A stretch of 64,000 nucleotides of DNA from Candidatus Omnitrophota bacterium (GTDB lineage: Bacteria > Omnitrophota > Gorgyraeia > Gorgyraeales > Gorgyraeaceae): positions 20,126 through 84,125 of the forward strand of contig JBDRJN010000032.1 of the NCBI GenBank assembly GCA_043814965.1. Direction: 5' to 3'. Below the pieces are notes generated by a model. The model was not told the DNA's origin and made no database searches. It was given only the letters and a program-made list of their open reading frames with translations. A program made the translations under genes and the position numbers. Shown in pieces: positions 19,841 to 51,005 of the stretch; the first letter of the stretch is position 1; each line of letters opens with the position of its first letter.

Positions 19841-20064
19841 ATCTTGAATTTCTCCGAATCTATACCCAATCTTCTAACTTTATTATAAAGGGTATTTCTA
19901 TGGATACCCAGCATTTTCGCTGCTATTATCTTGTTGCCAAAAGACCTCTTTAGCGCTTTTTCAATAAGCATCTTTTCCATGCCCCCTATTACAACCGAAT
20001 AGATATGGCCTTTATGGATCATTATGAAATCATCATCTATGTTATCAATATCTTTACTCATCAT
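19837..20064 (-). CDS. Small stand-alone Fis-type (NtrC C-terminal-like) HTH DNA-binding protein
   Basis: 75 aa. IEKALKRSFGNKIIAAKMLGIHRNTLYNKVRRLGI matches the Fis / NtrC HTH_8 signature. A 4-nt ATGA overlap with gltB indicates translational coupling. Confidence 0.65.
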   Translation of the reverse strand: MMSKDIDNIDDDFIMIHKGHIYSVVIGGMEKMLIEKALKRSFGNKIIAAKMLGIHRNTLYNKVRRLGIDSEKFKI

Positions 20065-20087
20065 TCCAGTGCTATTCTGCCTAAATC

Positions 20088-20141
20088 TTATGCAGTATTT
20101 TTTAAAAAATTTTAATCATTATTGCAGGGGAGGGGTATCCC
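20088..20141 (-). terminator. Rho-independent terminator downstream of glnA1
   Basis: Perfect 13-bp GC-rich stem (TTGCAGGGGAGGG / CCCTCCCCTGCAA, loop GTAT), followed on the minus strand by a U-rich tract. Confidence 0.55.
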
Positions 20142-20165
20142 TCCCCTGCAATATACTGATCTTGA

Positions 20166-21494: not shown

Positions 21495-21527
21495 TTTTAC
21501 CCCTTTCTCGGTTTTTTGCCTCGTATT

Positions 21528-21676
21528 CATTAAGTAGAAAAGACGTTCCTATAGCGCTTGTCCTAGCTATAAGAACGTCTTTGTTCTATCTGGGTGATTA
21601 ACACAAACTTTGTGCTTATCTACCTATACTGGTAGCCTTCATATATACAAGTAAAAAAAGAGTGCTTTTGGTAACT
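21528..21676 (-). promoter_or_regulatory. Conserved nitrogen-regulon leader module, copy E1. Upstream of glnA1.
   Basis: On the gene strand the module contains, in order: AGTTACCAA, then 12 nt, then TTTTTACTTGTATA. Next come the palindrome GCACAAAGTTTGTGT and the hairpin AGAAC-AAAGAC-GTTCT. A 9-bp stem follows (AAGACGTTC...GAACGTCTT, enclosing TATAGC...GCTATA) with UUUUCUACUU after it, ~35 nt before the ATG. Confidence 0.55.
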
Positions 21677-21760
21677 TATTTTTTATCTAAAAGAGTCTAA
21701 AAGTAGACGTTCTATCCGAGTACACCCTACAGCACAATGATTAACGAATTAATATAACTA

Positions 21761-22102
21761 TTATCCTATTGCCTCACCGCCTCTTTCTCCTGTGCGGATC
21801 CTGATGCATTCATTGAGATCATATACAGCTATTTTCCCGTCGCCAATATTGCCAGTCCTAGCTCCTTTGATAACCGCACTTATAGTAGGCTCGACGAAAT
21901 CATCATTTACAAGTATCTCCAGCTTGATCTTGGGAATCAGGTTTACCTTATAGATCTTTCCTCTGTAAGATTCAGTATAACCTCTTTGCTGACCGCAGCC
22001 TTTTACTCTGCTTACTGTCATCTTAAATACCTCGGCCTTGAATAGTTCAGCTTTAACCGCATCCAGTTTTTCTGGCTGTATGATCGCTTCTATTTTTTTC
22101 AT
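21761..22102 (-). CDS. glnB: Nitrogen regulatory protein P-II
   Basis: 113 aa with a T-loop ([12 protein letters not shown]) and the GlnB signature. Confidence 0.9.
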
Positions 22103-22115
22103 TTACTGCCTCCTA

Positions 22116-23351
22116 TTATAAAGACTCCTCAGGATATGCCTCTATCTTGTGAATAGACAGATCCGCTCCTATTAATTCAGAGTGTTCATCAAGTCTTATA
22201 CCAAAAGTCTTCTTAAGTATAAAATAAACCAGGCTTCCGCCTATAAGCGCAAACACGATTGCAGCCAGTGACCCTATCAGCTGCGCTGATAAACTCACGC
22301 CTCCGAGCCCTCCGAGTATCTTCTTGCCGAAAATACCGCAAGCAACTCCACCCCAAGTTCCAGCAACTCCGTGAAGAGGCCAGACCCCCAATACATCATC
22401 TATTTTCAATTTCTCAGTCTCTGTCTGAAAAAGTACTACAAATATCACAGCAGCTACTGCTCCTGTAACTAGCGCGCCCATTGGATGCATCACATCCGAA
22501 CCAGAACAAATAGCTATCAGTCCTGCAAGCGCTCCATTATGTATGAACGTAACGTCGTTCTTAGACACGATCAAAGCTGCTATTATCCCTCCTACCATAG
22601 CCATAAGCGAATTGATAGCTACCAATCCGGAAATATTCTCTAATCTTCCTGCGCTCATCACGTTAAAGCCGAACCATCCTATACAAAGCAGCCAACTTCC
22701 AAGAGCCAGAAAAGGTATATTGCTGACTTTTATAGGCTGCGACTCGCCATTTTCATATCTCTTAAGGCGAGAACCCAATATTATGATAGCAGGCAGCGCC
22801 AACCATCCTCCCATAGAATGAACAACTACAGAGCCAGCATAGTCATGAAATGGTATACCCCCTGTAAAATTAGCCAGCCACGAACCAGCCTGGCCCAAAA
22901 GCAGATTTTTACCCCACACCAATGATTCGAAAAACGGATAGACCGACCCTACAAAGATCCCTCCTGCCAGAGCCTGGGTCCAAAACTTGGCCCTTTCAGC
23001 TATCCCTCCTGAAATAATAGCAGGGATGCACGCTGCAAAAGTCAAAAGAAAGAAAAAGTGCACTATATCAAAACCCTGGTTGGGGCCTAATAATTCAGAT
23101 GCTGGCTTCAAAAAACTTATCCCATAGGCGATCGGAAAGCCTATGATAAAATATATGACCGTGGAAAACGCCCAGTCAGTGATTATCTTCACCAATGCAT
23201 TCACCTGGTTCTTTTTCCTCACTGACCCTACTTCCAAAAAAGCAAAACCCGCGTGCATAGAGAAAACAAACATCGCTCCCAAAAGTAAAAATAAGATATT
23301 ACTGCTGGCAAGCAACTTTTCAAGGCTTATCGACAACATCTGCATATTCAT
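22116..23351 (-). CDS. amt: Ammonium transporter
   Basis: 411 aa Amt/MEP family protein with multiple TM helices. It lies immediately upstream of glnB. Confidence 0.9.
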   Translation of the reverse strand: MNMQMLSISLEKLLASSNILFLLLGAMFVFSMHAGFAFLEVGSVRKKNQVNALVKIITDWAFSTVIYFIIGFPIAYGISFLKPASELLGPNQGFDIVHFFFLLTFAACIPAIISGGIAERAKFWTQALAGGIFVGSVYPFFESLVWGKNLLLGQAGSWLANFTGGIPFHDYAGSVVVHSMGGWLALPAIIILGSRLKRYENGESQPIKVSNIPFLALGSWLLCIGWFGFNVMSAGRLENISGLVAINSLMAMVGGIIAALIVSKNDVTFIHNGALAGLIAICSGSDVMHPMGALVTGAVAAVIFVVLFQTETEKLKIDDVLGVWPLHGVAGTWGGVACGIFGKKILGGLGGVSLSAQLIGSLAAIVFALIGGSLVYFILKKTFGIRLDEHSELIGADLSIHKIEAYPEESL

Positions 23352-23357
23352 GCCTCC

Positions 23358-23497
23358 TTTTTACTAAAACAAAAGAGGCGTCCCTATAATTTTTTACAAC
23401 AATAAGAACGCCTTCGTTCTATTAGCCTTTACACAAACATTGTGCTTAGATACCTAATTACTTATATAAGTAAAAATAGAGGTAGCTTGGTAACTTA
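23358..23497 (-). promoter_or_regulatory. Conserved nitrogen-regulon leader module, copy E2. Upstream of amt1-glnB1.
   Basis: Blocks on the gene strand: AGTTACCAA, then 12 nt, then TTTTTACTTATATA. Next come the palindrome AGCACAATGTTTGTGT and the hairpin AGAACG-AAGG-CGTTCT. A stem AGGCGT...ACGCCT is followed by CUUUUGUUUU ahead of the start. Confidence 0.55.
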
Positions 23498-23591
23498 GGC
23501 CAAATCTTAATTGATAATTTATTGTTTAATCTTATATACCTGCGTAAAAGCATTATTCTAAGCTAGCCGGAAAATAGCTGATTAGAAAAAA

Positions 23592-23803
23592 GATAAAAGG
23601 AATTCTGTAAGCGAATTTGAAAATTTAACCTTTTATGAAGCGTTTTGGCGGTTTTTAAAAGGCTCGAAACTATCCGAAGCCAGCACGCCAGATTTTGTGC
23701 TGGCAAGTTTTTCGAGCCCCGACAAAATGCGTAATAAAAGGTGTCCCAAAGTAAATTCTATAAGTGGGAAATTTTCACCTGAGCGAACGGAATTCCTTTT
23801 ATC
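23592..23803. repeat. 212-bp element bounded by a perfect 14-bp inverted repeat (GATAAAAGGAATTC / GAATTCCTTTTATC). It encloses a nested GC-rich hairpin.
   Basis: The inverted repeat and the inner hairpin (GGCTCGAAA..GCCAGCAC..GTGCTGGC..TTTCGAGCC, 23661-23718) were read directly from the sequence. On the minus strand the outer stem is followed by UUUUUU. No ORF lies inside; the + ORF 23697..24038 is spurious. Confidence 0.5.
23648..23718 (-). terminator. Terminator-like nested hairpin downstream of glnK2
   Basis: A 9-bp outer stem and an 8-bp inner stem, followed by UUUUAAAAACC on the minus strand. Confidence 0.45.
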
Positions 23804-23830
23804 TTTAAACAAATTACTAACTATAACTTG

Positions 23831-24172
23831 TTACCCTATTGCCTTTCCTCCAGTTTCCCCTGTACGGATCCTTATACATTCAGGAAGGTCCAGCACAAAT
23901 ATCTTCCCATCTCCTATATTGCCCGTCTTGGCGCCTTTTATGATAGCATCAATAGTAGGCTTAACAAAATCCTCATTTACCGCTATCTCCAACCTTACCT
24001 TTTTAAGAAGATTTACATCATGTATAACTCCTCTATAGGTTTCTGTAAAGCCTTTTTGCTGTCCGCAGCCAAGCACATTAGAGACTGTCATCTTGTAAAC
24101 CTGCGCATCGTAAAGCGCTTTTTTAACATCAGGTAATTTATGCGGTTGTACCATTGCTATTATTAACTTCAT
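23831..24172 (-). CDS. glnK: P-II protein, GlnK-type, amt-linked
   Basis: 113 aa paralogous to the glnB at 21761. It lies immediately downstream of the second amt. Confidence 0.9.
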
Positions 24173-24256
24173 ATTACACCTCCGAAATTTTGCGAAGCAA
24201 AATTAAGCCCCGAGCAGCAACAGTCAATAACTATGCCGCGAGGGACAAGTTATGCT

Positions 24257-25513
24257 TTATTGGGTAGTAAAGATCTCGAATCCAGCGTATGATTCCATGC
24301 CATGCTCTCCTATATCTAGGCCTTTCAGTTCCTCTTCTTTTGAAACTCTTAGCCCTACTGTCTTATCTATTAATTTAAAAATAATGCTCATTGATGCGAC
24401 AATAAAAAGCGCTACTGATAGAACCCCCAGAGCCTGTATCCCAAGCTGAGTAAAGCCTCCTCCATAAAAAAGTCCGTTATTCGCAAGGCCAAGCGCTTTC
24501 TGGCCGAACAATCCTATAGAAAGAGTGCCCCATATACCATTTATGCCGTGTACAGGAAAAGCTCCCACGGGGTCATCTATGTGAAGTTTGTCCAATATAA
24601 CCACTGCCAATACTACTATAAACCCACCTATCATACCTATAATAATAGCTGCCCATGGCTCTACATATGCGCAAGGAGCAGTTATCGCTACGAGCCCTGC
24701 CAATGCTCCGTTCATTGCCATAGAGAGATCTGGTTTTCCAAATATCTTCCACACAGCAGCCATGGCTGTAAGACATCCTAAAGCTGCGGCGAGATTAGTA
24801 TTAATAGCTATTCTTGATATTAAATCTCCGTTTCCCACCCCAAGCGTAGAACCCGGGTTAAACCCAAACCACCCAAACCACAGTATAAATACCCCTAAAG
24901 AAGCCAGAGGTATTGAATGTCCTGCTATAGCATTTGCGGAACCATCAGCATTATATTTTCCTGTCCTTGGCTTTAACATTATAGTGCCTACCAGGGCTGC
25001 TACACCTCCTACTAGATGTACTACAGTAGAACCTGCAAAATCAGAAAACCCCAGCTTAGCCAGCCATCCTCCGCCCCATATCCAATGGCCTACGACCGGA
25101 TATATAAAAGCGGATATCAGAAAGGAATATACCAAGTATGCCTGAAACTTCATGCGTTCAGCCATGCCTCCCGCAACAATCGTTGCTGCTGCGCCGCAAA
25201 ATGCTGCCTGGAATAGCCAAAAAGCATATAAAGGTACGCCTGCGCCTGATTCAGCGCCATTCAAAAACCAGCCTTTTAATCCAATAAAACTATTTCCTGC
25301 GCCAAACATTATTGCATAGCCAAATACGAAAAATCCTAAAGACGCCATACAAAAATCCAGGAAATTCTTGGTCAATATGTTACATGTGTTTTTTGCCCTT
25401 ATGAATCCAGCTTCTACCATACCAAATCCAGCTTGCATAAAAAACACTAAAAATGCTGCCAACAATACCCATACAGTATCAAGCCCTGCCCTTAGATCAA
25501 CTAAAGTTTCCAT
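24257..25513 (-). CDS. amt: Ammonium transporter, second copy
   Basis: 418 aa Amt family protein. Confidence 0.9.
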   Translation of the reverse strand: METLVDLRAGLDTVWVLLAAFLVFFMQAGFGMVEAGFIRAKNTCNILTKNFLDFCMASLGFFVFGYAIMFGAGNSFIGLKGWFLNGAESGAGVPLYAFWLFQAAFCGAAATIVAGGMAERMKFQAYLVYSFLISAFIYPVVGHWIWGGGWLAKLGFSDFAGSTVVHLVGGVAALVGTIMLKPRTGKYNADGSANAIAGHSIPLASLGVFILWFGWFGFNPGSTLGVGNGDLISRIAINTNLAAALGCLTAMAAVWKIFGKPDLSMAMNGALAGLVAITAPCAYVEPWAAIIIGMIGGFIVVLAVVILDKLHIDDPVGAFPVHGINGIWGTLSIGLFGQKALGLANNGLFYGGGFTQLGIQALGVLSVALFIVASMSIIFKLIDKTVGLRVSKEEELKGLDIGEHGMESYAGFEIFTTQ

Positions 25514-25524
25514 AATCCCCTCCT

Positions 25525-26289
25525 TTATAAGCTAAAAGCTACTGTCACTCCTCCATAAAATTCGTTATCGTAATTGCCGTCATCTGCGTCCTTAAGGTCT
25601 CCGAAAGGCATGTCATAATTTATAACAGGCGATATTGAACAGATATCTGTTAATTTGATAGTAAGCCCTGCTCCAAGATTAACATGCCCTCCTTCTCCTT
25701 TAATAAACAACTCCTTGTTGTACCCAACTCCTCCTGATAAGTCCAAGGTTACTGGAGAATCTCCTACAGGCTCAGAATGGCTAAGACTAAGATAAACATA
25801 ATCTCCGCTTCCTCCTCCTGAGTCTTCTTCTCCAAAATCATGATAAAACGTTATAGAAGGAGAAAGTAATGTATCCAAGCTTGTTCCTATAAACCATTCC
25901 CTGCTGGCTCCGTCTGCTGCCGGAAAATCATAATACGTAAAACCTCCTGAGAGCGACACTGGGGTTCCAGGGATAGGATAACTATAACTTATAGAATAAT
26001 CCACCTCTTCGGAAGATGTCAAAGAATCATCCGAATCTATATCAGCGCTTCCCCAAATGCTTGTCTCAAAATCATAACCACTAACATAGACTCCTGGCTG
26101 AACCACTGGATCGCCATCAAGTTTTATACCTCTCCATATGTATTTCGAGAAAAAGCCAATATCCGAAAAAACGCTGATATCATGCCCTTCTAACAAAGGC
26201 TTTGTGTCTTCTGCAAAAACTCTCCTGGCCGTGAAACTGACCGAAAAACAAATCATTAATATCAATAATCCTTTTATAAGCTTCATCAT
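25525..26289 (-). CDS. Small outer-membrane beta-barrel, porin-like protein. It heads the amt2-glnK2 operon.
   Basis: The likely true start is MMKLIKGLLILMICFSVSFTA (signal peptide), with a GGGGAAGGGA SD just upstream. The track start at 26361 would run through the terminator hairpin. The protein has alternating beta-strand patterns, acidic loops and a C-terminal ...VTVAFSL. Confidence 0.5.
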   Translation of the reverse strand: MMKLIKGLLILMICFSVSFTARRVFAEDTKPLLEGHDISVFSDIGFFSKYIWRGIKLDGDPVVQPGVYVSGYDFETSIWGSADIDSDDSLTSSEEVDYSISYSYPIPGTPVSLSGGFTYYDFPAADGASREWFIGTSLDTLLSPSITFYHDFGEEDSGGGSGDYVYLSLSHSEPVGDSPVTLDLSGGVGYNKELFIKGEGGHVNLGAGLTIKLTDICSISPVINYDMPFGDLKDADDGNYDNEFYGGVTVAFSL

Positions 26290-26304
26290 TCCCTTCCCCT
26301 TTTT

Positions 26305-26415
26305 TGTAAAAGTTAAAAAATAAAACAGGCGTTCTTTATAAGAACGCCTTCGTATCAACACAACTATGTGTCTTTATCTGCTTATACAAGTAAGAATTTG
26401 ATTACTTTGGTAACT
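26305..26415 (-). promoter_or_regulatory. Conserved nitrogen-regulon leader module, copy E3. Upstream of porin-amt2-glnK2.
   Basis: Blocks on the gene strand: AGTTACCAA, then 12 nt, then TTCTTACTTGTATA. Next come the palindrome ACACATAGTTGTGT and ACGAAGGCGTTCTTAT, which forms the 5' arm of a strong terminator (GGCGTTCTT-ATA-AAGAACGCC plus UGUUUUAUUUUUU). The start follows ~35 nt later. Confidence 0.55.
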
Positions 26416-26472
26416 CCGTATCAAACTTTAACATAATTTAATTCTGGGACTTGGTATTGAGCAGATCACTTT

Positions 26473-26988
26473 TTAATCAAACTTCCTATGCCATTTTTTT
26501 ATTATGTTCTTCTTATGCTTTAGGATCATGACATGGGATATATTCATCTCTTTTGCAGCTTCCCGAACTGTATATCCCTTAAGGAGATACGAGAGTACGG
26601 TCTTTTCGCTATCCGTCAAGCCTATGCCCTTCAATTCATCAACCGTAAGCCTGCGCTCCATGCTATCCGGAAAGCTTTCCTTTTTGTCTTCAAGGATATC
26701 GCCTAACGTCAGGTCTGTTGAAGGAATGATTTCATTGAGACTTGTTAATAATGCCTTTGGCCTTCCTTTTCTTAAAAAATTTTGAATATGGAACTCGCAC
26801 CCTTTGATAATATAACTCTCATTCTTATCGATCGGGGCCCCATACTTATAATTCTCTAGTAAATACAGGCACATCTCCTGATAAAGGTCATCTTCGCTAT
26901 AGAATCCTTTTAAGATATGCCTTCTAGCAATAAGCTTAAGCGTAGGAGTTATTTTTTCAAGTAGTATCCTAAAATCCATAAGTATCAC
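26473..26988 (-). CDS. ECF-type sigma-70 family factor
   Basis: 171 aa with a region-2-like segment (DDLYQEMCLYLLENY) and a region-4 HTH (LTDSEKTVLSYLLKGYTVREAAKEMNIS). An AGGTGA SD precedes the internal ATG (MDFRILL) at ~26979. Confidence 0.6.
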   Translation of the reverse strand: MILMDFRILLEKITPTLKLIARRHILKGFYSEDDLYQEMCLYLLENYKYGAPIDKNESYIIKGCEFHIQNFLRKGRPKALLTSLNEIIPSTDLTLGDILEDKKESFPDSMERRLTVDELKGIGLTDSEKTVLSYLLKGYTVREAAKEMNISHVMILKHKKNIIKKWHRKFD

Positions 26989-26995
26989 CTATTGA

Positions 26996-27045
26996 CTAAA
27001 AATAAAAAAGTCCTTTCCAGTAGAACTCTCTACCAAAAAGGACTT
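26996..27045 (-). terminator. Intrinsic terminator immediately upstream of the ECF sigma gene
   Basis: 9-bp stem (AAGTCCTTT...AAAGGACTT) with an inner hairpin, followed on the minus strand by UUUUUAUUUUUAG. Confidence 0.5.
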
Positions 27046-27054
27046 CATTGTCCT

Positions 27055-27087
27055 ATAAATATAAAAAGCGTTCCTTTCCTGGAACGC
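27055..27087 (-). terminator. Second tandem terminator in the spacer between the 266-aa gene and the ECF sigma gene
   Basis: GCGTTCC-AGGAAA-GGAACGC hairpin followed by UUUUUAUAUUUAU on the minus strand. Confidence 0.5.
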
Positions 27088-27250
27088 CTCATCGCCTTTA
27101 TATTGAGCACTATCTTTGTACTCAATATAAGTTTACCATCTTATGGGTGTACTGTCAATAGCCTTTTTTCTACTAGGGTTTTTCGCTGAGAAATCCAAGC
27201 GTCTTTTTGAGGCCCATCTCACAAAAAAAGCGAAGATCGTTTATAGCTTA

Positions 27251-28051
27251 TTATTCTCCGCTGAATGGAAGGAGTTTTTTGATAGTATCTCGTGCCTTCT
27301 TTGTAGCATCTTCTGCAGTATCTTTAAGTTTTCCTCCTGCGCCAAGCGCTGCACCTTTGGTATCTTTTACCAGGCCCGATGTAATACCAAACGCATCACT
27401 AAGGCCTTCTTTTAAAAGCCCTGATTCAAAATCTGTAAGGCTTGATATAGTTGTATTCATAAGCGCGTTCATTACTATAATATTCGTAAGGGCTTTAGGG
27501 TCAGTGATATTTCGATACGTAGCGTCTATATTGACCTTGAATTCTCTGGATTTTCCTTCCGGACCTTGCGTATAATCCTTATATACGACCTTGCCTATCT
27601 TAAGTTTTAATAAATCTATCTTTAGGTCTACTGCTCTCTTCTCTTCTTTTGTCCCGGTAGATGCTCCTTCTTTTTTCAGTGTCTTTAATGAATCTATATT
27701 AAGCTTGCCTGCGCTATTTTTTACAACAATAAGTTCTTTTAAATATAATCTTACTTCTTCTAGATGCACTTTTCCCTTTAAAAGGCCTTCTAAGTCATAG
27801 TCTACGTATATCTCTGGAAGATCAGCCATAAGCCTTTCTTTAAAACTATCTGGATTAAGCATCCTCAATTCTTTTATATCCACAAATGAATTGAATATCC
27901 CGACTTTAAAACTACCTACTTCCATCTTGAGTCCCGTTACAGCTCTTATAGCCATTGATACAGAGTTCTTTATTATAATGTCCTTTTCTAAAAAAAGTAT
28001 ACCCAAAGCAAGGGTTAAAATAATGATAATAATAAAAATTATCTTTTTCAT
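27251..28051 (-). CDS. Hypothetical membrane-anchored periplasmic protein
   Basis: 266 aa with an N-terminal TM (IIFIIIIILTLALGILFL), followed by a Lys-rich soluble domain. I recognise no family. Confidence 0.45.
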   Translation of the reverse strand: MKKIIFIIIIILTLALGILFLEKDIIIKNSVSMAIRAVTGLKMEVGSFKVGIFNSFVDIKELRMLNPDSFKERLMADLPEIYVDYDLEGLLKGKVHLEEVRLYLKELIVVKNSAGKLNIDSLKTLKKEGASTGTKEEKRAVDLKIDLLKLKIGKVVYKDYTQGPEGKSREFKVNIDATYRNITDPKALTNIIVMNALMNTTISSLTDFESGLLKEGLSDAFGITSGLVKDTKGAALGAGGKLKDTAEDATKKARDTIKKLLPFSGE

Positions 28052-28060
28052 ATTAAACTC

Positions 28061-28786
28061 CTATTCTGACGATCTTATAATAAGTGAATAGCCAAGGACT
28101 CCTGGATTCTGTATTAGAAGTGGGGTCCTTTTTTTATCATCAGCTAGATATAATTTAAAATGAGGCGGGTCGCTTATAAAAGCATGCGCTGCATATTTTC
28201 CCATCGGAGTCTCGATAGCCTCTTTTCCTTTATAGCTAACGATAAAATCAAGCGTCGGAAGAGATATATGAAACTTCTCTTTTTCTTTGAAATCAGCCTT
28301 TGCCCTGCAAAAATAAACTAGAAGTATCGCATTGTGGATCGGCGAATCTTTCTTTATAGAAGACTTTTTTGTCCTGAGGTTGCTTTTTGAGGTTATATCA
28401 ACTCTAAAATCTTTCTGGTCATAGGTCTCTATTATAGAATCATTGAACCCTATCTTTTTTTTGACCATGCGCCTTACTTCTTTTGGAAGGAATGTCCTCA
28501 TATCTCCGAATATCTCTTCTGTATCTTTAAATGAAGCTGCTTTCGTAAAAAATGTGACATGATATAACTTTTCGCCTCGTAATTCTTCTTCGCCGCGAAA
28601 ATCCAGTATAGCCTCTCCTATCCTAAGGCCTTTATACTTCACATCATATGTTAAGCGTTCATTTTTTTCAAAAGGTAAAGGCGTATTATACTCGATGCCT
28701 AAAACACTCTCTGAGGCGTGGTTATCGGATATAAAGACAGTCAGGCAAGATACTGCCATCATAAAGATCAAAGATATATTTTTCAT
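28061..28786 (-). CDS. Hypothetical secreted protein
   Basis: 241 aa with a signal peptide (MKNISLIFMMAVSCLTVFISDNHA). I recognise no family. Confidence 0.45.
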   Translation of the reverse strand: MKNISLIFMMAVSCLTVFISDNHASESVLGIEYNTPLPFEKNERLTYDVKYKGLRIGEAILDFRGEEELRGEKLYHVTFFTKAASFKDTEEIFGDMRTFLPKEVRRMVKKKIGFNDSIIETYDQKDFRVDITSKSNLRTKKSSIKKDSPIHNAILLVYFCRAKADFKEKEKFHISLPTLDFIVSYKGKEAIETPMGKYAAHAFISDPPHFKLYLADDKKRTPLLIQNPGVLGYSLIIRSSE

Positions 28787-28796
28787 GATTTTTAGG

Positions 28797-30131
28797 CTAT
28801 AGGATCGGCAAATATTTATCTATCTCATATTTAGAGACCTGGGCCTTGTATTCATCCCATTCTAGATATTTATTCCTTATAAAATATCCAAAGACCTTGT
28901 CCCCCAAAGCCTCTTTTAAAAGAGAGCTCTTTTCAGCAAGCTTTATTGCTTCATATAGGTCTTCCGGCAGAGAATTGATGGTTGCTTTTTCCCTATCCTT
29001 TTCCGTCATCTTATAGATGTTGTCTTCTGCAGGCTCTACGAGTTTATATTTCTTCTTTATACCTTCCAGGCCTGCCCTAAGCATCACTGAAAATGCCAGG
29101 TAGGGATTGCAGGCTGGATCAGGAGACCTGACCTCGATCCTTGTCGCGTGTTCTTTGCCAGGTTTATACATAGGGACCCTTACAAGAGCGGATCTATTCA
29201 TCTGTGCCCAACAGATGTAAACAGGCGCCTCATAACCCGGTATAAGCCTCTTATATGAATTGACCCACTGGTTTGTAACAACCGTGATCTCCGGGACATG
29301 TTTCAATATACCTGCTATAAAATATTTTGCTGTGTCTGACAGATGCCTTTTATCGGTCTTACTGAAAAATGCGTTCTTCTTGCCTTTAAAAAGAGACTGG
29401 TGCACATGCATGCCGCTTCCATTTATGCCATGTATTGGTTTTGGCATAAAAGTAGCATACACACCGTTCTGCCTGGCAACCTCTTTTACTACCATGCGGT
29501 ATGTCATGACATTGTCAGCCATCATAAGCGCGTCATTATATCTAAGGTCTATCTCATGCTGGGAACTAGCTACTTCATGATGAGAATATTCTACCTGGAC
29601 CCCCATCTTTTCCAGATTTATGACTGTCTGTCTTCTGAAATCCTGCGCAACATCCAAAGGCGTCAAATCGAAATATCCTCCTCTATCGAGTATTATTGTA
29701 TTATTAGGGTTATTAAAATAAAAATACTCCAGTTCCGGGCCTACATAATAATTGGTAAAGCCCATGTCTTTTGCAAGCTTGATGTTCCTCTTTAATACAA
29801 ATCTTGGATCTCCCTCAAAAGGTTTTCCGTTAGGCTGTAATATATCGCAGAACATCCTTGCAGAAAGCCCTTCTTTCTTCTTTCTCCATGGAATAAGCTG
29901 GAACGTAGAGATATCAGGAAAAGCTACCATATCACTCTCTTCGATGCGGGCAAATCCTTCAATGGATGAACCGTCAAAACCCATACCTTCTGACAATGCC
30001 TTATCAAGCTCATTTCTTGTGATAGTGACTCCTTTTTGAAAACCCAATACATCAGTAAACCAGAGCTTGATAAATTTAATGTTATGTTTTTTTACTAACC
30101 TTAAAACGTCTTTTTTGGTTTTAATTAACAT
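28797..30131 (-). CDS. glnA: Glutamine synthetase type I, second copy
   Basis: 444 aa with the same GS signature blocks as the copy at 20166 (GFDGSSI, SHHEVASSQHE, NGSGMHVHQS, NSYKRL). Its start overlaps the queF stop. Confidence 0.9.
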   Translation of the reverse strand: MLIKTKKDVLRLVKKHNIKFIKLWFTDVLGFQKGVTITRNELDKALSEGMGFDGSSIEGFARIEESDMVAFPDISTFQLIPWRKKKEGLSARMFCDILQPNGKPFEGDPRFVLKRNIKLAKDMGFTNYYVGPELEYFYFNNPNNTIILDRGGYFDLTPLDVAQDFRRQTVINLEKMGVQVEYSHHEVASSQHEIDLRYNDALMMADNVMTYRMVVKEVARQNGVYATFMPKPIHGINGSGMHVHQSLFKGKKNAFFSKTDKRHLSDTAKYFIAGILKHVPEITVVTNQWVNSYKRLIPGYEAPVYICWAQMNRSALVRVPMYKPGKEHATRIEVRSPDPACNPYLAFSVMLRAGLEGIKKKYKLVEPAEDNIYKMTEKDREKATINSLPEDLYEAIKLAEKSSLLKEALGDKVFGYFIRNKYLEWDEYKAQVSKYEIDKYLPIL

Positions 30132-30529
30132 ACTTTGCTCCCTTTGAATTCAGAACTTATAGTTGTTGTTATCCCCCCGCGAGTGTTAAATACTCCTTTG
30201 ATATATGCCCATCTTGGTTTGCAGGCCTTTACAAAATCATCTAAAATCTTATTTACCGCATGTTCGTGAAAAATACCTATATCCCTATAACTTACCAGGT
30301 ACATCTTTAAGCTCTTTAGCTCTACACATAGCTCATCAGGCCTATACTGGAGCATCAGGTTAGCAAAGTCAGGTAAGCCCGTCTTTGGGCATACACATGT
30401 AAATTCTGGATGTTCTAGATCTATCAAATAATCCTTATCAGAGTACTCATTGCGCCAGGTATCTATCTTTGGCATCTTGAGGCAGCGTACGTCTTTTTGT
30501 AGATCTCTGTAGGAATTTTTACTTGGCAT
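30125..30529 (-). CDS. queF: NADPH-dependent 7-cyano-7-deazaguanine (preQ0) reductase, type I (YkvM-like)
   Basis: 134 aa with the QueF motifs EFTCVCPKTGLPDF (catalytic Cys), ELKSLKMYL and the C-terminal NTRGG. Confidence 0.85.
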   Translation of the reverse strand: MPSKNSYRDLQKDVRCLKMPKIDTWRNEYSDKDYLIDLEHPEFTCVCPKTGLPDFANLMLQYRPDELCVELKSLKMYLVSYRDIGIFHEHAVNKILDDFVKACKPRWAYIKGVFNTRGGITTTISSEFKGSKVC

Positions 30530-30539
30530 AATATTTTTA

Positions 30540-31265
30540 TTACTTCATCTCATGCGTCATTACTATGGCTTCAGCGACATCCTTCATAGGCTTACGCCTA
30601 TCCATGCTGAACTTTTGTATCTTTCTAAAGGCATCTTCTTCTGTGAGACCTTCTTCTTTCATCAAGATACCTTTTGCTTTTTCTACTACTTTTCTTGTCT
30701 CGAGTTCTTCCTGTATAACACGCGTCTTTACCATAAGCTCTGTATTTTCTATAGCGATAGCTGCTTGATTTGCAACGCTTGTGAGGACGCTTATCTCTGT
30801 TTTTGAAAATTTATGCGGCTTTGAAGTGTAACAGTTTAAAGCTCCTATAACCTTATTTTTTACAGCTAAAGGCACGCACAAAAGTGAGGCAAGGCCTTCT
30901 TTTTGGGCAATATTTTTGTATTTGTATTCGGGATCCTTTAAAATATCCTCGACTACCAAAGGCTTATTAGCTGCGACTACTTTCCAGACCAAGCCCTCGC
31001 CTTTTTTTAGAGGGTCCTTACCTATATATTCTTCACTAATGCTTTGGGTTGCCCTTATAGAAAGATGTTCTTTTTTTTCATCCAAGAGCATAAGCGTACA
31101 GATCCTTGAATTCATGACTTCTGCTGTGACTGTTACGATAAGTTTGAGTATATCTTCTAGATAAAGATCGCTCGATATGGCTCTAGAGATCTTGGAAAGC
31201 GCTTCTATGGTATCAGCTGCTTTTGTATTCGTATTGGATCTTACTGCCTTATTTTTCTTTTTCAT
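30540..31265 (-). CDS. GAF-ANTAR domain RNA-binding antitermination regulator
   Basis: 241 aa. The N-terminal GAF domain is followed by a C-terminal ANTAR domain (ELETRKVVEKAKGILMKEEGLTEEDAFRKIQKFSMDRRKPMKDVAEAIV). It has a 4-nt overlap with lpxI. Confidence 0.8.
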   Translation of the reverse strand: MKKKNKAVRSNTNTKAADTIEALSKISRAISSDLYLEDILKLIVTVTAEVMNSRICTLMLLDEKKEHLSIRATQSISEEYIGKDPLKKGEGLVWKVVAANKPLVVEDILKDPEYKYKNIAQKEGLASLLCVPLAVKNKVIGALNCYTSKPHKFSKTEISVLTSVANQAAIAIENTELMVKTRVIQEELETRKVVEKAKGILMKEEGLTEEDAFRKIQKFSMDRRKPMKDVAEAIVMTHEMK

Positions 31266-32080
31266 ATAGCGATAACACTTAGCCCTATTTCGTTTGCCAT
31301 ATTCAATACTTTATCTTTATCTATGATAAGTGTCTTCTCCGCTTCTATTGCGATCGCCTTTGCTTTGACTTCCTTTAAAAGACTTATTGTGCCTGGCCCG
31401 ATCACAGGTATGTCAAATCTCATATCCTGCTTTGGTTTTGATACCTTTATTACTACAACCCCTTCTTTTCCGTAGAAAGCGCCTCTCTTTATCGCCTCGT
31501 CCGTCCCTTCTATGGACTCGACGGCCAAAACAGTTTTATCTTTTACTACAATGGTCTGGCCTATATCAAGGCCTGCTATTACCTTTATTATGTCTTTCCC
31601 GAACTCTATGTCTTCCAAGATAGTTTTATCTAAAGAGGAATTGGTCAAGATCCCTTTTTTAGGAAGTAGGTCTTCTAAAAATAAAGTGGATTTTAGGACC
31701 TTTATGCCTTTTTGCTCAAGAAAGCTTGCAACAGCGCCTATCAAAGAATCTGTCTTTTTATCCTTTACGCTTCCCAAAAGGCCCGCCATACTGCTATCAA
31801 GTTTTATGGATTTATCAAAGATAAGATTATGCCTGACCTGTCCAGCCATTACTACGTTGTTTATTTTCTCTTTTAATAATATCTCGAATAACTTTCCCAG
31901 TTCTCCAACGCTTAACCAGTAGATCCTGTCTACAATATTTTCTAATTCCTTCGATGTCTCTTCTTTTATCGCTATCCCTATTACTTCTACATTCTGTTTC
32001 TTGGCATTTTGAGCAAGAAGTAATGGAAATTTTCCGTTGCCTGCAAGCAAAGCTATTTTATTTACCACCTCGACAAACAC
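31262..32080 (-). CDS. lpxI: UDP-2,3-diacylglucosamine hydrolase, LpxI-type (DUF1009)
   Basis: 272 aa with an N-terminal IALLAGNGKFPL motif typical of LpxI. It is located after lpxA. Confidence 0.65.
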   Translation of the reverse strand: MFVEVVNKIALLAGNGKFPLLLAQNAKKQNVEVIGIAIKEETSKELENIVDRIYWLSVGELGKLFEILLKEKINNVVMAGQVRHNLIFDKSIKLDSSMAGLLGSVKDKKTDSLIGAVASFLEQKGIKVLKSTLFLEDLLPKKGILTNSSLDKTILEDIEFGKDIIKVIAGLDIGQTIVVKDKTVLAVESIEGTDEAIKRGAFYGKEGVVVIKVSKPKQDMRFDIPVIGPGTISLLKEVKAKAIAIEAEKTLIIDKDKVLNMANEIGLSVIAI

Positions 32081-32864
32081 CTCTTGTTGACTTTTTTATA
32101 AAATCTGTAAGATAATCTACTTCCTTCACTCCTTTTATCTCTTCTCTTACCTTATCCAGCCCGTTTTTAAATGAAAGCTTGCTTCTAAATAGTATCCTAA
32201 ACGCCTTTTTAAGTGCGGTTTGAGATTCTTTTGAGATCCCTGCCCTTGATAGGCCAATACTATTTAGCCCGTATATCCTCACGGGATGTCCGTCACAAGT
32301 TGAAAAAGGCGGGACATCCTGAACTACCTTTGAACATCCTCCTACGATAGAAAGCCTTCCTATTGTGACAAACTGGTGTATCGCTGTAAGCCCTCCTATT
32401 ACCACCCTATCCTCCAATGTGACATGCCCTGCAAGAGTCCCTGAGTTGGCAATGATACAATTTGACCCAACTTTACAGTCATGGGCCACATGAGAATATG
32501 CCATAAAGAGGTTTCCATCCCCTATCTGAGTGACGCTCCCCTCATCTGTACCAGGATTAAAAGTAGCGTATTCTCTGATCGTATTGTTTTTTCCTATCCT
32601 TAAGAAGCTTTTTACACCTTTATATTTAAGGTCTTGGGGGATCGAGCCAATACATGCTCCTGCAAATACATGAGTACCTTCTCCAATAGTAGTATAACCA
32701 TCTATTACTACATGAGGCCCGATCTTGACATTTTTTTCTATCTCTACGTTGGGCCCTATAATAGCATAAGGGCCGACCTCAATCTGGTCAGCCAATCTTG
32801 CTTTAGCATCGATAACTGCTGCGGAATGAATATTCATCTTTTTATTAAGCATCACCCAATGCAA
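32058..32864 (-). CDS. lpxA: Acyl-ACP--UDP-GlcNAc O-acyltransferase
   Basis: Hexapeptide-repeat LbH protein with an LpxA-type N-terminus (IHSAAVIDAKARLADQIEVGPYAIIGPNVEI). The true start is probably the internal Met near 32837. Confidence 0.9.
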   Translation of the reverse strand: MHWVMLNKKMNIHSAAVIDAKARLADQIEVGPYAIIGPNVEIEKNVKIGPHVVIDGYTTIGEGTHVFAGACIGSIPQDLKYKGVKSFLRIGKNNTIREYATFNPGTDEGSVTQIGDGNLFMAYSHVAHDCKVGSNCIIANSGTLAGHVTLEDRVVIGGLTAIHQFVTIGRLSIVGGCSKVVQDVPPFSTCDGHPVRIYGLNSIGLSRAGISKESQTALKKAFRILFRSKLSFKNGLDKVREEIKGVKEVDYLTDFIKKSTRGVCRGGK

Positions 32865-35859: not shown

Positions 35860-38202
35860 TTAAAATCCTCTACTCATACTAAAATGGAACCTTCCCTTAT
35901 CTTCCTGAAAAGATTCTGGATTAATAGGAAAGCCGTAATCTAATTTTACAGGCCCTATGGGTGTTTTGATCCTCACGCCTATACCAGTGCCCAACTTGAT
36001 CCCTCCAATAGAAGTCCCTCCCTTGGGATTGCTATCAGGACAGCTCCATACATTGCCGGCATCAACAAATATTGCGCCTTTAAGGTTCTCTATGATGGAT
36101 AATGTAAGTTCCGCGTTAGCCAATGCTAATGTACCTCCACCAACAGGATCGCCTGATATATCTTTTGGTCCGATATCTCTTTCTTTATAACCTCTTATAG
36201 TATAAGTACCTCCAGCGAAAAACCTCTCATATATCGGGACCTGCGAAGAATCACCAAAAGAACTTACGACTCCGCCTTTAGCCCTTAACTCCAATACAAA
36301 AGGCCCTATTGTCGAGTAACGATTTGCGGAGTTTATCAACTTCGCAAAATCCTTATCTCCTCCTACAGGTCCTCCAGCAACCTCCATAGATTCACTCCAT
36401 ACTATACCCTTTGTAGGATTAAATTTATTATCTCTTGTATCTCTTGTGACCTGCATAAAAACACTGCTTATGGTATTCTCTCCCGCCTCATCTTTCAAAG
36501 ACTGCGATGCATCTACAGATAAGTCGGATATCTCTACTGATTCGATCTTGTATGAAAGATCTGCCCTCAAATACTCATTAAATTCTTTTCCGAATCTGAT
36601 AGCCCCTCCCTGCCTGTTTTCATCATACGCATATCCAGTAGAACCGCTTCTATTACGTTCTGTAGAATACAGATCAAAACCAAAAGAAAGCGGGTGATCA
36701 AATATCCAGGGCTCTGTCCAGCTCAATAGATAATTCTTTCGCACGCTTCCCATCTCTGCCCTTAACTTAAGGTCCTGCCCGTCTCCTGTGAACGTGGGGA
36801 AGTTCAGCATATCAAAATTACGCTGTTCCACCTCGACAAAACCTATTAATTTATCTATAGAGGAGAAACCGCCTCCAAAACTGAACTCTCCTGTCTTTGA
36901 TTCTTTTACTTCTACAACCATATCCTTTTTGGTAGAAGAACCTGTGTCTTCTATATCAAATATTATATCCTCAAAAAATCCAAGATTATATAATCGTTCT
37001 TTACTCCTCCTGAGCTTGGCCCCGTCATACTTATCCCCAGGGTTTAACCTAAGCTCTCTGCGAATGACAACATCTTTTGTCTTTGAGTTGCCTTTTATAT
37101 TGACCTTGTTTACATAACAGATCTCTCCTTCGACAATATTATATATAACATCTACCTTATCCTTATCAATATTAAGCACTGTGTCGGGTTTTACCTTTGC
37201 CATCACATAGCCCCTGTCAAAATAATATTCCTGCAGGCTTGTCACTTCCTTATGCAAGGCGCTTTCTGTGAATATATCGCCATCCCTCATCTTAAGTTGA
37301 GATTTTAATTCTTCTTCGGAAAATATATTATTGCCTACTATCTTGAAATCTCCCGATATATATTGCCTTCCCTCGTTGATCTTTATAACCAGTTCTATCC
37401 ATTTCTTTTTCTTTTTCTGATGGGAAATGACCTCATAGCTGGTTTCAGCATCTAAAAAACCTTCGTTTCTGTAAAAATTCTTTATACGCTCTGTATCGTC
37501 TTCTACTACATCCTGTTTATATATGCCTGATCTAAAGAACCCTGAGGTCTTACTTTTCATAATTTTTAGGACCCTCTTATCGCTAAACGCGGAGTTATCT
37601 AAAATGCTTATGGACCTTACAACAGCCTTTGGGCCTTCATCTATAATGAATGCTACCTCTGTGGCCTCTCCTTCTCCCTCCTGTTTAGCATTGATCTCGT
37701 ACTTAACCTCTACCCATGGATAGCCTGCCCTCTTATATAGATTAGTTATCTCTTCTGTATCTTTTAGAAGGCGTTTTTCATCCGCAAGCTCATTAGGCTT
37801 TGACTTGACTATAGTAAGCAGCTTTTCTTCTTTATGAAGGCGGTTTCCTTTGAACTTTATAACAGTAAGGAGCGGTTTTTCTGTTACTACAAAGATTACA
37901 CCTACCTTTTCGTCAACATCCTCAAGGGAAACGCTCACATCACTAAAAAACCCCATCAGATAAAGCCTTTTTACATCCTCGTTAACCACTTTATCCAGGA
38001 ACAAGTCCCCTTTTTTTGTCTTTAGCTTTGACAGTATCTTGGCTTCTGAGACAGTCTTGTTGTTTTCTACTTTCACATACTTGATGATCTTTTTCGGGGC
38101 GCCTTCCTCTGCGAGGATAGCTATAGGGCCGGTTGAATAGAACACGAACGATGTTGTAACTAAAAATATATAAAACTTAGTAAGAAAATTCGCTTTTTTC
38201 AT
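35860..38202 (-). CDS. bamA: Outer membrane protein assembly factor BamA
   Basis: 780 aa with POTRA repeats and a C-terminal Omp85 barrel. It forms the conserved bamA-skp-lpxD cluster. Confidence 0.9.
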   Translation of the reverse strand: MKKANFLTKFYIFLVTTSFVFYSTGPIAILAEEGAPKKIIKYVKVENNKTVSEAKILSKLKTKKGDLFLDKVVNEDVKRLYLMGFFSDVSVSLEDVDEKVGVIFVVTEKPLLTVIKFKGNRLHKEEKLLTIVKSKPNELADEKRLLKDTEEITNLYKRAGYPWVEVKYEINAKQEGEGEATEVAFIIDEGPKAVVRSISILDNSAFSDKRVLKIMKSKTSGFFRSGIYKQDVVEDDTERIKNFYRNEGFLDAETSYEVISHQKKKKKWIELVIKINEGRQYISGDFKIVGNNIFSEEELKSQLKMRDGDIFTESALHKEVTSLQEYYFDRGYVMAKVKPDTVLNIDKDKVDVIYNIVEGEICYVNKVNIKGNSKTKDVVIRRELRLNPGDKYDGAKLRRSKERLYNLGFFEDIIFDIEDTGSSTKKDMVVEVKESKTGEFSFGGGFSSIDKLIGFVEVEQRNFDMLNFPTFTGDGQDLKLRAEMGSVRKNYLLSWTEPWIFDHPLSFGFDLYSTERNRSGSTGYAYDENRQGGAIRFGKEFNEYLRADLSYKIESVEISDLSVDASQSLKDEAGENTISSVFMQVTRDTRDNKFNPTKGIVWSESMEVAGGPVGGDKDFAKLINSANRYSTIGPFVLELRAKGGVVSSFGDSSQVPIYERFFAGGTYTIRGYKERDIGPKDISGDPVGGGTLALANAELTLSIIENLKGAIFVDAGNVWSCPDSNPKGGTSIGGIKLGTGIGVRIKTPIGPVKLDYGFPINPESFQEDKGRFHFSMSRGF

Positions 38203-44782: not shown

Positions 44783-44856
44783 TGGCTGCCCGGCTAGGAT
44801 TCGAACCTAGAAACTCAGCTCCAAAAGCTGATGTGTTACCATTACACTACCAGGCA
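44783..44856 (-). tRNA. tRNA-Gln (anticodon UUG)
   Basis: A minus-strand cloverleaf. The anticodon stem-loop is cagcTTTTGGAgctg, the T-arm GGTTCGAATCC, and the 3' end is encoded as GCCA. Confidence 0.8.
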
Positions 44857-50927: not shown

Positions 50928-51005
50928 TGGCGTCCCCAACCGGATTCGAACCGGTGTCGTCAGATCGAAAATCTGATGTCCTAGGCCAGACTAGACGATG
51001 GGGAC
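50928..51005 (-). tRNA. tRNA-Glu (anticodon UUC)
   Basis: A minus-strand cloverleaf. The anticodon stem-loop is tcagaTTTTCGAtctga, the T-arm ACCGGTTCGAATCCGGT, and the 3' end is CCA. The 5' boundary is approximate. Confidence 0.75.

Follow-up and report, generated by a model that had tools for sequence, protein, structure and literature searches.

A GAF-ANTAR protein of Omnitrophota as the predicted antiterminator of ammonium-assimilation operons

The subject of this work is a stretch of 64,000 nucleotides (nt) from a Candidatus Omnitrophota bacterium (contig JBDRJN010000032.1 of assembly GCA_043814965.1, positions 20,126 to 84,125 of the forward strand), here called the window and numbered from its first letter. 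An open reading frame (ORF) at 30540..31265 on its minus strand, with an ATG start, encodes a GAF-ANTAR protein of 241 amino acids, hereafter the regulator, and four RNA leaders on the same strand, E1 to E4, precede genes for a glutamine synthetase, for ammonium transporters with PII proteins and for a sigma-like protein. The sequences indicate that the regulator is very probably the cognate antiterminator of these leaders. The basis for this is its domain architecture, the RNA motif and its covariation, the overlap of the motif with terminators, the content of the regulon and the co-occurrence of the genes; RNA binding by the regulator, its ligand and the direction of its response are what we infer.

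The regulator, its operon and the leaders of the window

An earlier note on this DNA had placed a GAF-ANTAR gene at 30540..31265, and this is the exact ORF, with both Pfam domains far above their cut-offs. GAF_2 scores 87.9 bits (cut-off 28.6; E 9e-25) over residues 36-173 and ANTAR (PF03861) 79.2 bits (cut-off 27.3; E 1.9e-22) over residues 184-235, where it spans profile positions 3-54 of 54. The protein is 100% identical to an entry at NCBI that derives from a metagenome-assembled genome of Candidatus Omnitrophota. The PDB relatives of the ANTAR domain found by phmmer are Rv1626, EutV (chain 6wsh, E 3e-11), NasR (chain 4akk, E 4e-8) and AmiR. Eleven residues of EutV have been reported to contact RNA at the hexaloops (PMC8934654), and in our alignment 8 of the 11 are identical or conservatively replaced in the regulator: R142, K143, K147, K149, E160, Y164, M172 and R175 of EutV correspond to R191, K192, K196, K198, E208, F213, M221 and R224, with Phe213 in the place of Tyr164, the aromatic residue that stacks on the fourth loop base (G4). 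The contacts not kept, R168, N173 and R177, are Q217, D222 and P226 in the regulator, the first two being the same replacements as in Rv1626. Among 10 orthologs the kept residues are invariant, save K196. In the AlphaFold2 (AF2) model of the regulator (predicted local distance difference test, pLDDT, 81) a helix of 51 residues connects the GAF domain with a three-helix bundle, the helices being at residues 155-205, 209-223 and 227-240 (pLDDT about 88-91 there), and the long helix that runs into the bundle is the basis on which dimerisation is predicted.

The position of the gene in a lipid-A operon beside queF and glnA2, as described in the earlier note, was borne out. Every gene in this part of the window lies on the minus strand:

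31262..32080, minus strand: lpxI, directly upstream of the regulator
30540..31265, minus strand: GAF-ANTAR regulator gene (GAF residues 36-173, linker helix at about residues 155-205, ANTAR residues 184-235)
30125..30529, minus strand: queF, 10 nt downstream of the regulator and overlapping glnA2
28797..30131, minus strand: glnA2, a glutamine synthetase gene downstream of queF

The start of the regulator gene overlaps the stop of lpxI by 4 nt, so that the two are translationally coupled, and lpxA lies upstream of this pair. From lpxA to about 27250 a consensus scan of the minus strand gave no terminator that was convincing, and the regulator is therefore placed in a single long operon, which runs from lpxA and lpxI through the GAF-ANTAR gene, queF and glnA2 to a DUF3108 gene and an AsmA-like gene. 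The window has two type I glutamine synthetase genes, glnA1 behind leader E1 and glnA2, which has no leader and is co-transcribed with the regulator.

Three leaders at a distance of 4-10 kb had been described previously. Leaders E1 to E3 are indeed present, 3.4-9 kb downstream of the regulator on the same strand, and it is the count that has changed, since a fourth leader, E4, was found at 26997-27125. A 35-nt block (repeat family D2) is common to the three intergenic regions of E1, E2 and E3, and each copy is followed by a small hairpin and then by a strong hairpin with a U-run. The leaders, in which P1 and P2 are the first and second hairpins, and the genes behind them are:

21537-21619, minus strand: E1, before glnA1; P1 AGCAC-AAAGUUU-GUGUU, 12-nt linker, P2 AGAAC-AAAGAC-GUUCU
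E1 terminator, minus strand: AGACGUUCUUAUAGC...GCUAUAGGAACGUCU then UUUU, 15 base pairs (bp), extending from the GAC-GUUCU of P2
20166..21530, minus strand: glnA1, type I glutamine synthetase, behind E1 (Pfam Gln-synt_C, E 3e-129)
23363-23449, minus strand: E2, before amt1-PII; P1 GCAC-AAUGUUU-GUGU, P2 AGAAC-GAAGGC-GUUCU
E2 terminator, minus strand: sequence AGGCGUUCUUAU...AUAGGGACGCCU then a U-run
21761..23351, minus strand: amt1-PII operon, behind E2 (amt1 22116-23351, PII 21761-22102)
26313-26375, minus strand: E3, before porin-amt2-PII; hexaloop P1 GACAC-AUAGUU-GUGUU, weak P2 GA(U)AC-GAAGGC-GUUC with one bulge
E3 terminator, minus strand: AGGCGUUCUU-AUA-AAGAACGCCU then a U-run, 10 bp, independently flagged by the scan at 26349-26327
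23831..26289, minus strand: porin-amt2-PII operon, behind E3, from Pfam and translation
Members of the E3 operon, minus strand: porin-like Gcw_chp about 25525-26289, amt2 24257-25513, PII 23831-24172
26997-27125, minus strand: E4, tandem attenuator before the sigma-like gene; P1 GAGUAC-AAAGAUA-GUGCUC in a 13-bp stem, degenerate P2
E4 terminators, minus strand: terminator 1 at 27090-27065; hairpin GGAC-AAUGAA-GUCC overlapping terminator 2 at 27046-27007; both flagged by the scan
27158-27130, minus strand: sigma-70 type promoter of E4, flagged by the scan
26473..26988, minus strand: candidate sigma-70-family protein of the extracytoplasmic function (ECF)-like kind, 171 amino acids, behind E4

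The assignment of amt1 is by Pfam (Ammonium_transp, E 1e-88) and that of the adjoining PII gene by its translation. All four leaders fold more stably than their shuffles, with z scores of -5.7 (E1), -4.9 (E2), -4.3 (E3) and -8.7 (E4). Where the earlier note had recognised a single ANTAR-like hairpin with A in the first and G in the fourth loop position (A1/G4), in E1, that count was too pessimistic: P1 carries A1 and G4 in all four leaders, in a loop of 7 nt in E1, E2 and E4 and of 6 nt in E3, and E1 to E3 have a second hairpin over the terminator with a hexaloop and G4, whose first base is A in E1 and G in E2 and E3. The linker between P1 and P2 measures 12 nt (E1), 9-10 nt (E2) or 0-1 nt (E3). 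In each of the four leaders the 3' half of P2 is part of the 5' arm of the terminator, and the terminator stem is supported by a compensatory change between GACGUUC/GAACGUC (E1) and GGCGUUC/GAACGCC (E2 and E3). P2 alone has a folding energy of -0.3 to -5.6 kcal/mol against -13 to -22 kcal/mol for the competing terminators (-3.2 against -20.9 in E1; -5.2 against -17.3 in E2), and since P2 is so much the weaker structure, termination would be the default and a factor would be needed to hold P2.

The RNA motif and the regulator in related genomes

Relatives of the regulator are present in at least 454 species-representative genomes, and the family is strongly conserved, the best 120 protein clusters being 73-86% identical. 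From these genomes we took the best 80 loci (62-84% identity, 1.09 Mb, cited where needed as L and a number), which were picked for carrying a GAF-ANTAR gene and belong to Omnitrophota, Aerophobetes, Ratteibacteria and loosely labelled bins. Bins labelled Planctomycetia, Actinomycetota, Clostridia or archaeon carry the Omnitrophota-type protein (L003, L008, L014, L020, L035, L056 and others), and these labels are probably coarse or wrong.

A pattern scan of the loci showed the unit of P1, P2 and terminator in many of them, often directly 5' of the regulator gene. A loose descriptor (a 4-bp stem with an A..G.. loop, a second hairpin and a U-run) returned 341 mostly spurious matches and was replaced by covariance models. 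The first of these, R1, describes the P1 plus P2 state and was built from 20 seeds with E1 and E2 among them; the seeds have 7-nt P1 loops only, because MAFFT mis-registered 6-nt and 7-nt loops when these were aligned together, and R1 is therefore biased against leaders with a hexaloop P1 such as the one at 9888 in L033. In the window R1 found its seeds E1 and E2, then E3 and E4 as the next best, and nothing else credible; weak matches at 30101-30144 (the queF/glnA2 junction), 36879-36936, 37453-37500 and 9368-9415 lie in coding sequence, are without a terminator and were put down to chance. Across the 1.09 Mb of related loci R1 gave 70 matches at E <=1, every one of them on the strand of the regulator. 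A refined second model gave the same picture. A third, R3, was made from the leaders of other genomes alone, with no window sequence, and it returned E1 to E4 as the four best matches in the window (39.8, 35.1, 25.0 and 19.0 bits; E 3.9e-7, 4.9e-6, 0.001 and 0.025, with 128 kb searched).

In the R1 alignment 92.8% of the cells at paired positions form pairs, against 33-60% in slid controls (91-93% against 30-64% with the repeat on a further alignment, A8). Double-change cells number 64, where shuffles give 24.5, and none of 500 shuffles came as high (repeated on A8). The two pairs that close the loop of each hairpin, A-U and C-G, are invariant among the matches and are reminiscent of the eut sites, whose closing pairs are sequence-specific (PMC3369931). 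Among the 50 matches that were not seeds, G4 and A1 occur in P2 in 45 and 43 cases, respectively, and in P1 in 37 and 38. The P1 loop measures 7 nt in 45 of the 70 matches and 6 nt in 9 (25 and 9 among the 50 non-seed matches), while the P2 loop is a hexaloop in 49 and has 8 nt in 16; canonical dual hexaloops are found in L002, L008, L033 and L052. In 67 of the 70 matches the 3' arm of P2 lies in a hairpin that ends at a U-run. The same holds for 9.9% of all CGTTC sites and for 3.6% of positions taken at random, and the terminator is not part of the covariance model. Tandem attenuators like that of E4 (26997-27125, minus strand) were also observed in L006, L009, L022, L026, L031 and L079; the second module has its own terminator and unrelated stems and keeps the A1/G4 loops, as in UUUC-AGCGUUA-GAAA followed by GGAU-AAAGAC-GUCC.

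The gene behind the 70 matches is most often the GAF-ANTAR gene itself (33 matches); the 171-amino-acid gene follows 6, and the others include genes for glutamate dehydrogenase (GDH), glutamine synthetase of type I and type III, amt, carB (a weak match, in L004) and glutamate synthases, both large-subunit and archaeal-type with a partner oxidoreductase. With the window proteins as probes, the order lpxA-lpxI-GAFANTAR-queF-glnA2 was found to be kept in the 20 closest loci. Orthologs at 62-71% identity have lost the lpx context and in about 25 loci adjoin gltB/gltD, glnA, amt or the 171-amino-acid gene, in varied orders; since these distant orthologs lose lpx and yet adjoin nitrogen genes, the conserved linkage of the regulator is to nitrogen assimilation and not to lipid A. 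Among the 58 informative loci without lpx, 30 have a match within 700 nt upstream of the regulator gene, with two tandem copies in 7 of the 30, and variant leaders missed by the model were seen in 4 more, which brings the motif before the regulator to about 34 of 58. The regulator family is thus autoregulated in many lineages, as judged from the position of its leader, and in the clade of the window the regulator is constitutively embedded in the lpx operon.

A few observations on these neighbourhoods may be recorded. In all 20 of the closest loci queF is kept between the regulator and glnA2, a functional link not being obvious. In close relatives a gdh gene with an ANTAR leader lies 3' of the DUF3108 gene (L002, L003, L004, L006, L008, L009, L012, L013, L018 and L079); at this position the window has the AsmA/DUF748-like gene (27251-28051) and no gdh. 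In several distant loci, L030 (374-610), L040 (3511-3651), L054 (3223-3423) and L027 (550-782), the leader and the GAF-ANTAR gene are separated by an ORF of about 79 amino acids, which has no Pfam match and no homolog in the window.

Proposed mechanism and alternative explanations

We propose that the regulator would act as a one-component transcription antiterminator. Polymerase would start at the leader promoter and, without active regulator, the terminator would form and transcription would stop. The linker helix would hold an ANTAR dimer that binds P1 and then P2 of the nascent leader; as the 3' arm of P2 and the last three bases of its loop appear to double as the 5' arm of the terminator, a P2 that is kept closed would block that arm and allow read-through into glnA1, amt1-PII, porin-amt2-PII and the sigma-like gene. 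In relatives antitermination would extend to GDH, glutamate synthase, type III glutamine synthetase, carB and the regulator itself. The activity of the ANTAR domain would be set by the GAF domain according to nitrogen status, most likely by way of glutamine and/or 2-oxoglutarate. RNA binding that is switched on in nitrogen limitation (low glutamine, high 2-oxoglutarate) is the direction that we favour, because the targets serve uptake and high-affinity assimilation; assimilation on demand may be the logic instead, because GDH has an ANTAR leader in relatives.

A number of points weigh against this assignment, some of which are given with the alternatives below. The P1 loop counts 7 nt in E1, E2, E4 and the majority of relatives, as against hexaloops in the defined ANTAR target; the P2 loop begins with G and not A in E2 and E3; P2 is weak and bulged in E3 and degenerate in E4; and the linker ranges over 0-25 nt among the matches, whereas EutV is sensitive to linker length (PMC3369931). 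GDH together with glutamine synthetase and glutamate synthase genes behind an ANTAR leader in relatives is a misfit with a simple nitrogen-limitation switch, and GAF-ANTAR proteins are as a class experimentally uncharacterised in the literature. The likeness of the GAF domain to PtsP is at about 25% identity, and Lcd1, a cAMP-binding GAF domain (5w10), comes nearly equal in the fold search. It should also be noted that the seeds were chosen with a structure-aware filter and that the alignments are model-fitted, so that the pair counts lean to structure; this bias does not touch the gene context, the strand distribution or the overlap with terminators.

It is possible, and we consider it unlikely, that the leaders are targets of a different ANTAR protein, either of the response-regulator type or a paralog, and that the product of 30540-31265 has other targets. 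The window gives a view of 64 kb of genome and a second ANTAR protein may lie elsewhere, a GAF-ANTAR paralog at 52-57% identity is found a few kb or less upstream in six related loci (L024, L045, L051, L055, L057 and L062), and ANTAR domains are not believed to be tuned to individual RNAs (PMC7496416). Against this, the window encodes no ANTAR domain besides that of the regulator, the ortholog group has the motif in its own leader in some 34 of 58 informative loci, the regulator is linked to the genes of the regulon in varied gene orders, and the family is conserved at 62% identity and above in 454 or more species, next to conserved leaders. The earlier note had left room for the RNA element to belong to another regulator; this doubt is largely removed, since the motif has the features of an ANTAR target apart from its 7-nt first loop. 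Orthologs with entirely different leaders had also been considered there, and the opposite is seen: the unit of two hairpins and a terminator precedes nitrogen genes in relatives, and as it travels with orthologs across the 80 loci, always on the strand of the regulator, the proposal of an antiterminator for the nitrogen leaders is supported.

Protein-independent attenuators or riboswitch-like RNAs, for instance glutamine-sensing ones, or targets of a non-ANTAR protein would make the ANTAR likeness a coincidence, and are quite improbable. In their favour are a first loop that mostly counts 7 nt and not 6, and the poor P2 hairpins of E3 and E4; Rfam apparently holds no ANTAR-target family with which to compare the leaders. 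On the other hand, a permissive Rfam search (E <=5) of 19700-32200 gave no meaningful match, either to the glutamine riboswitch (glnA RNA) or to another family, and the leaders, at about 45 nt, are too small and simple for a ligand pocket. What is conserved in them is what characterises ANTAR targets, namely A1/G4 loops, invariant closing pairs and the overlap of P2 with the terminator, and the second module of the tandem leaders has wholly different stems with identical loops.

Slightly less probable again is that the regulator acts on its own operon (lipid A, queF, glnA2) or on translation, and not on the distal nitrogen leaders. Its place within lpxA-lpxI-GAFANTAR-queF-glnA2, in the window as in 20 close relatives, would suit such a role, and repression of translation has been proposed for the ANTAR RNAs of Actinobacteria, which extend over start sites (PMC8164766, bioRxiv 660928). 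However, no credible motif was found in or before lpx-queF-glnA2, where the best match (8-12 bits, E about 1-2) is coding and lies at 30101-30144; distant orthologs are entirely without the lpx context; and the terminators of the leaders stand 40-300 nt ahead of the start codons and do not overlap them. The least probable explanation, that the P1 palindrome (GCACAAAGTTTGTGC) is a DNA operator of a dimeric repressor and the hairpins are incidental, draws on the near-perfect palindrome that the P1 of E1 forms just downstream of a promoter and on the small Fis-type helix-turn-helix (HTH) and sigma-like proteins encoded in the cluster, but it was rejected on the G-U pairs that appear as the stems covary with pairing kept (8-10 per position at two positions of P1, 19-22 at one of P2), pairs that are sensible in RNA alone, on the strand specificity of the motif (70 of 70, with an asymmetric loop, A..GUU.) and on the replacement of P1 stems by unrelated GAUAC or UUUC with the loop kept.

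The signal, the sigma-like protein and the comparison with known systems

Returning to the regulator as the antiterminator of E1 to E4, the best NCBIfam matches of its GAF domain are to the N-terminal GAF domains of PtsP/EI-Ntr (1.9e-17) and of NifA (1.1e-16), the next being at 8e-10. The PtsP GAF domains are among the best solved relatives in a phmmer search of the PDB (3ci6 and 3trc, about 1e-13) and take the top three places in Foldseek (template modelling score, TM, 0.85; 25% identity). Glutamine is bound by EI-Ntr's GAF domain, and in E. coli there is reciprocal control by 2-oxoglutarate (PMC4848567 and its references). By analogy the signal of the regulator may be glutamine or 2-oxoglutarate, as the earlier note had put forward, a suggestion to which we would give somewhat less than an even chance. 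PtsP and NifA are the closest families in sequence, and PtsP in solved fold, and both kinds of GAF domain signal nitrogen status, that of EI-Ntr through glutamine and 2-oxoglutarate and that of NifA through 2-oxoglutarate; they differ in that the output is a phosphotransferase or an AAA+ activator instead of an RNA-binding ANTAR domain, that the identity is about 25%, and that their ligands are known where that of the regulator is predicted.

Two promoter classes precede the leaders. The standard sigma-70 type, CTTGACA-N17-TATAAT, stands before the leaders of the regulator, gdh, gltB and the 171-amino-acid gene, and the other, GTTACC-N15-TTACTT (class B), before the leaders of amt, glnA1, type III glutamine synthetase and some others. 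In the window the latter is part of the D2 repeat family:

21649-21675, minus strand: class-B promoter block GTTACC-N15-TTACTT of E1
23468-23494, minus strand: class-B promoter block of E2
26388-26414, minus strand: class-B promoter block of E3

The window and the related loci hold 27 copies of this block, all 27 on the gene strand and 26 with a fixed spacer and span, and 12 of the 13 loci with the 171-amino-acid gene carry it, usually straight after that gene. Pfam reports GerE alone for the 171-amino-acid protein. The NCBIfam sigma70-ECF model (TIGR02937) aligns residues 6-165 to profile positions 3-160 (E 4.5e-9) with 36.2 bits, below its cut-off of 42.9, and a profile of 6 orthologs has RNA polymerase sigma factors as its best PDB matches (3e-8, 3e-5), with a weak alignment in region 2 and a clear one in region 4. 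As both NCBIfam and the ortholog profile point to a small sigma factor, a LuxR/GerE reading of the gene was dropped. The protein is a probable member of the regulon and a candidate reader of the class-B promoters, and may be a dedicated nitrogen sigma factor behind an ANTAR leader. A feed-forward loop is plausible, in which the antiterminator releases the sigma factor and the promoters of the sigma factor drive operons that are gated by the antiterminator.

On this basis one may consider, tentatively, that Omnitrophota, Aerophobetes and Ratteibacteria place global nitrogen control in GAF-ANTAR antitermination with an ECF-like sigma feed-forward and not in a DNA-binding master of the NtrC, GlnR, TnrA, NtcA or NrpR type, a generalisation that we hold to be possible and short of probable. 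A PtsP-like GAF domain would then directly sense glutamine or 2-oxoglutarate and the entire ammonium-assimilation regulon would be gated; the sigma gene would stand behind an ANTAR leader, and the GTTACC-N15-TTACTT promoters would drive the amt, PII and glnA operons.

The cluster as a whole reads, in the 3' direction on the minus strand, 171-amino-acid gene, porin-like Gcw_chp, amt2, PII, amt1, second PII and glnA1, followed on the same strand by a strong terminator, a Fis-type HTH ORF, gltB and gltD. Long GC-rich terminators at 23650-23730 and 20120-20150 (both minus strand) close the amt2-PII operon and glnA1, and the E2 unit and the Fis-HTH-gltBD unit therefore begin new transcripts. gltBD has no ANTAR leader in the window and does have one in L026 and L031. 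The HTH ORF (19837-20064, minus strand; HTH_8, E 4e-13) encodes a stand-alone protein of 75 amino acids and overlaps the start codon of gltB; in at least 9 loci a homolog directly follows the GAF-ANTAR gene or precedes gltB, and the ORF is a conserved, though unexplained, part of the cluster. The amt2 operon opens, here as in L057, L076 and L079, with the porin-like Gcw_chp gene (25525-26289), whose product has a signal peptide and may be an outer-membrane ammonium channel. A scan of the window with Rfam at gathering score returned two tRNAs alone, at 44786-44856 and 50931-51005 (minus strand).

ANTAR substrates have been defined as pairs of small hairpins in which the first and fourth bases of the loop are conserved and the second hairpin overlaps a terminator (PMC3369931). 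For NasR, AmiR, EutV and GnfR of Geobacter it is established that nitrogen genes are controlled by ANTAR antitermination. EutV of Enterococcus faecalis (PMC3369931, PMC8934654) resembles the regulator in its ANTAR domain, with the 8 of 11 contact residues noted above, and the eut leaders resemble E1 to E4 in their two small A1/G4 hairpins, their conserved closing pairs, the overlap of P2 with the terminator and a regulon of several operons. EutV is distinguished by a phosphorylated receiver domain in place of a one-component GAF sensor and by its role in ethanolamine use instead of ammonium assimilation. The eut linkers measure 5-12 nt, with shorter or longer ones impairing EutV (PMC3369931), while here linkers of 0-25 nt occur, P1 usually has 7 nt and tandem attenuators are frequent. 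In Geobacter sulfurreducens the GnfK/GnfR system (PMC2995071) has been shown experimentally to include an ANTAR antiterminator for the leaders of nitrogen genes (nifH, glnK, amtB), and as here it sits on a second layer of nitrogen control at transcription initiation; GnfR is however a kinase-driven response regulator combined with RpoN and GnfLM and serves nitrogenase genes, in contrast to a one-component GAF protein combined with an apparent ECF-like sigma factor and assimilation genes. NasR of Klebsiella oxytoca shares the arrangement of a one-component ligand domain, a helical linker and ANTAR, and the antitermination of a nitrogen-assimilation operon, and differs in that its NIT domain senses nitrate and nitrite for the single operon nasF, where the regulator has a GAF domain, a regulon of several operons and, in many lineages, autoregulation. 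Terminator-overlapping ANTAR sites have been predicted computationally in Desulfotomaculum and Pelobacter before PII, amt and glutamine/glutamate synthase genes, and as many as 13 of them are spread over six transcription units (PMC3369931; Figure 9 and Table S2 of Ramesh et al., 2012); these belong to other phyla and no cognate regulator was named for them, whereas here one is assigned by linkage and autoregulation across at least 80 species of Omnitrophota and adjoining candidate phyla.

The mechanism itself is thus already known, and what appears from the sequence data to be new is the regulon and the likely signal of an uncharacterised and conserved GAF-ANTAR family. The variations that set it apart, namely the P1 loop of 7 nt, the variable linkers, the tandem attenuators and perhaps a sigma cascade, are minor. 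GAF-ANTAR is among the most abundant ANTAR architectures and reviews from 2012 to 2025 name no characterised member; our literature search found no description of such an ANTAR system in Omnitrophota. The regulator is the first ANTAR protein of the GAF type with a definable target regulon, and its family provides a concrete case in the form of a short protein and four defined RNA targets in one locus with the common theme of ammonium assimilation. The ANTAR rule of A1/G4 loops, closing pairs and overlap of P2 with the terminator would extend to a lineage in which the first loop usually has 7 nt, a point that matters for covariance models which predict ANTAR regulons. For the Omnitrophota, a widespread uncultured phylum, these data would offer a first view of how nitrogen assimilation is regulated.

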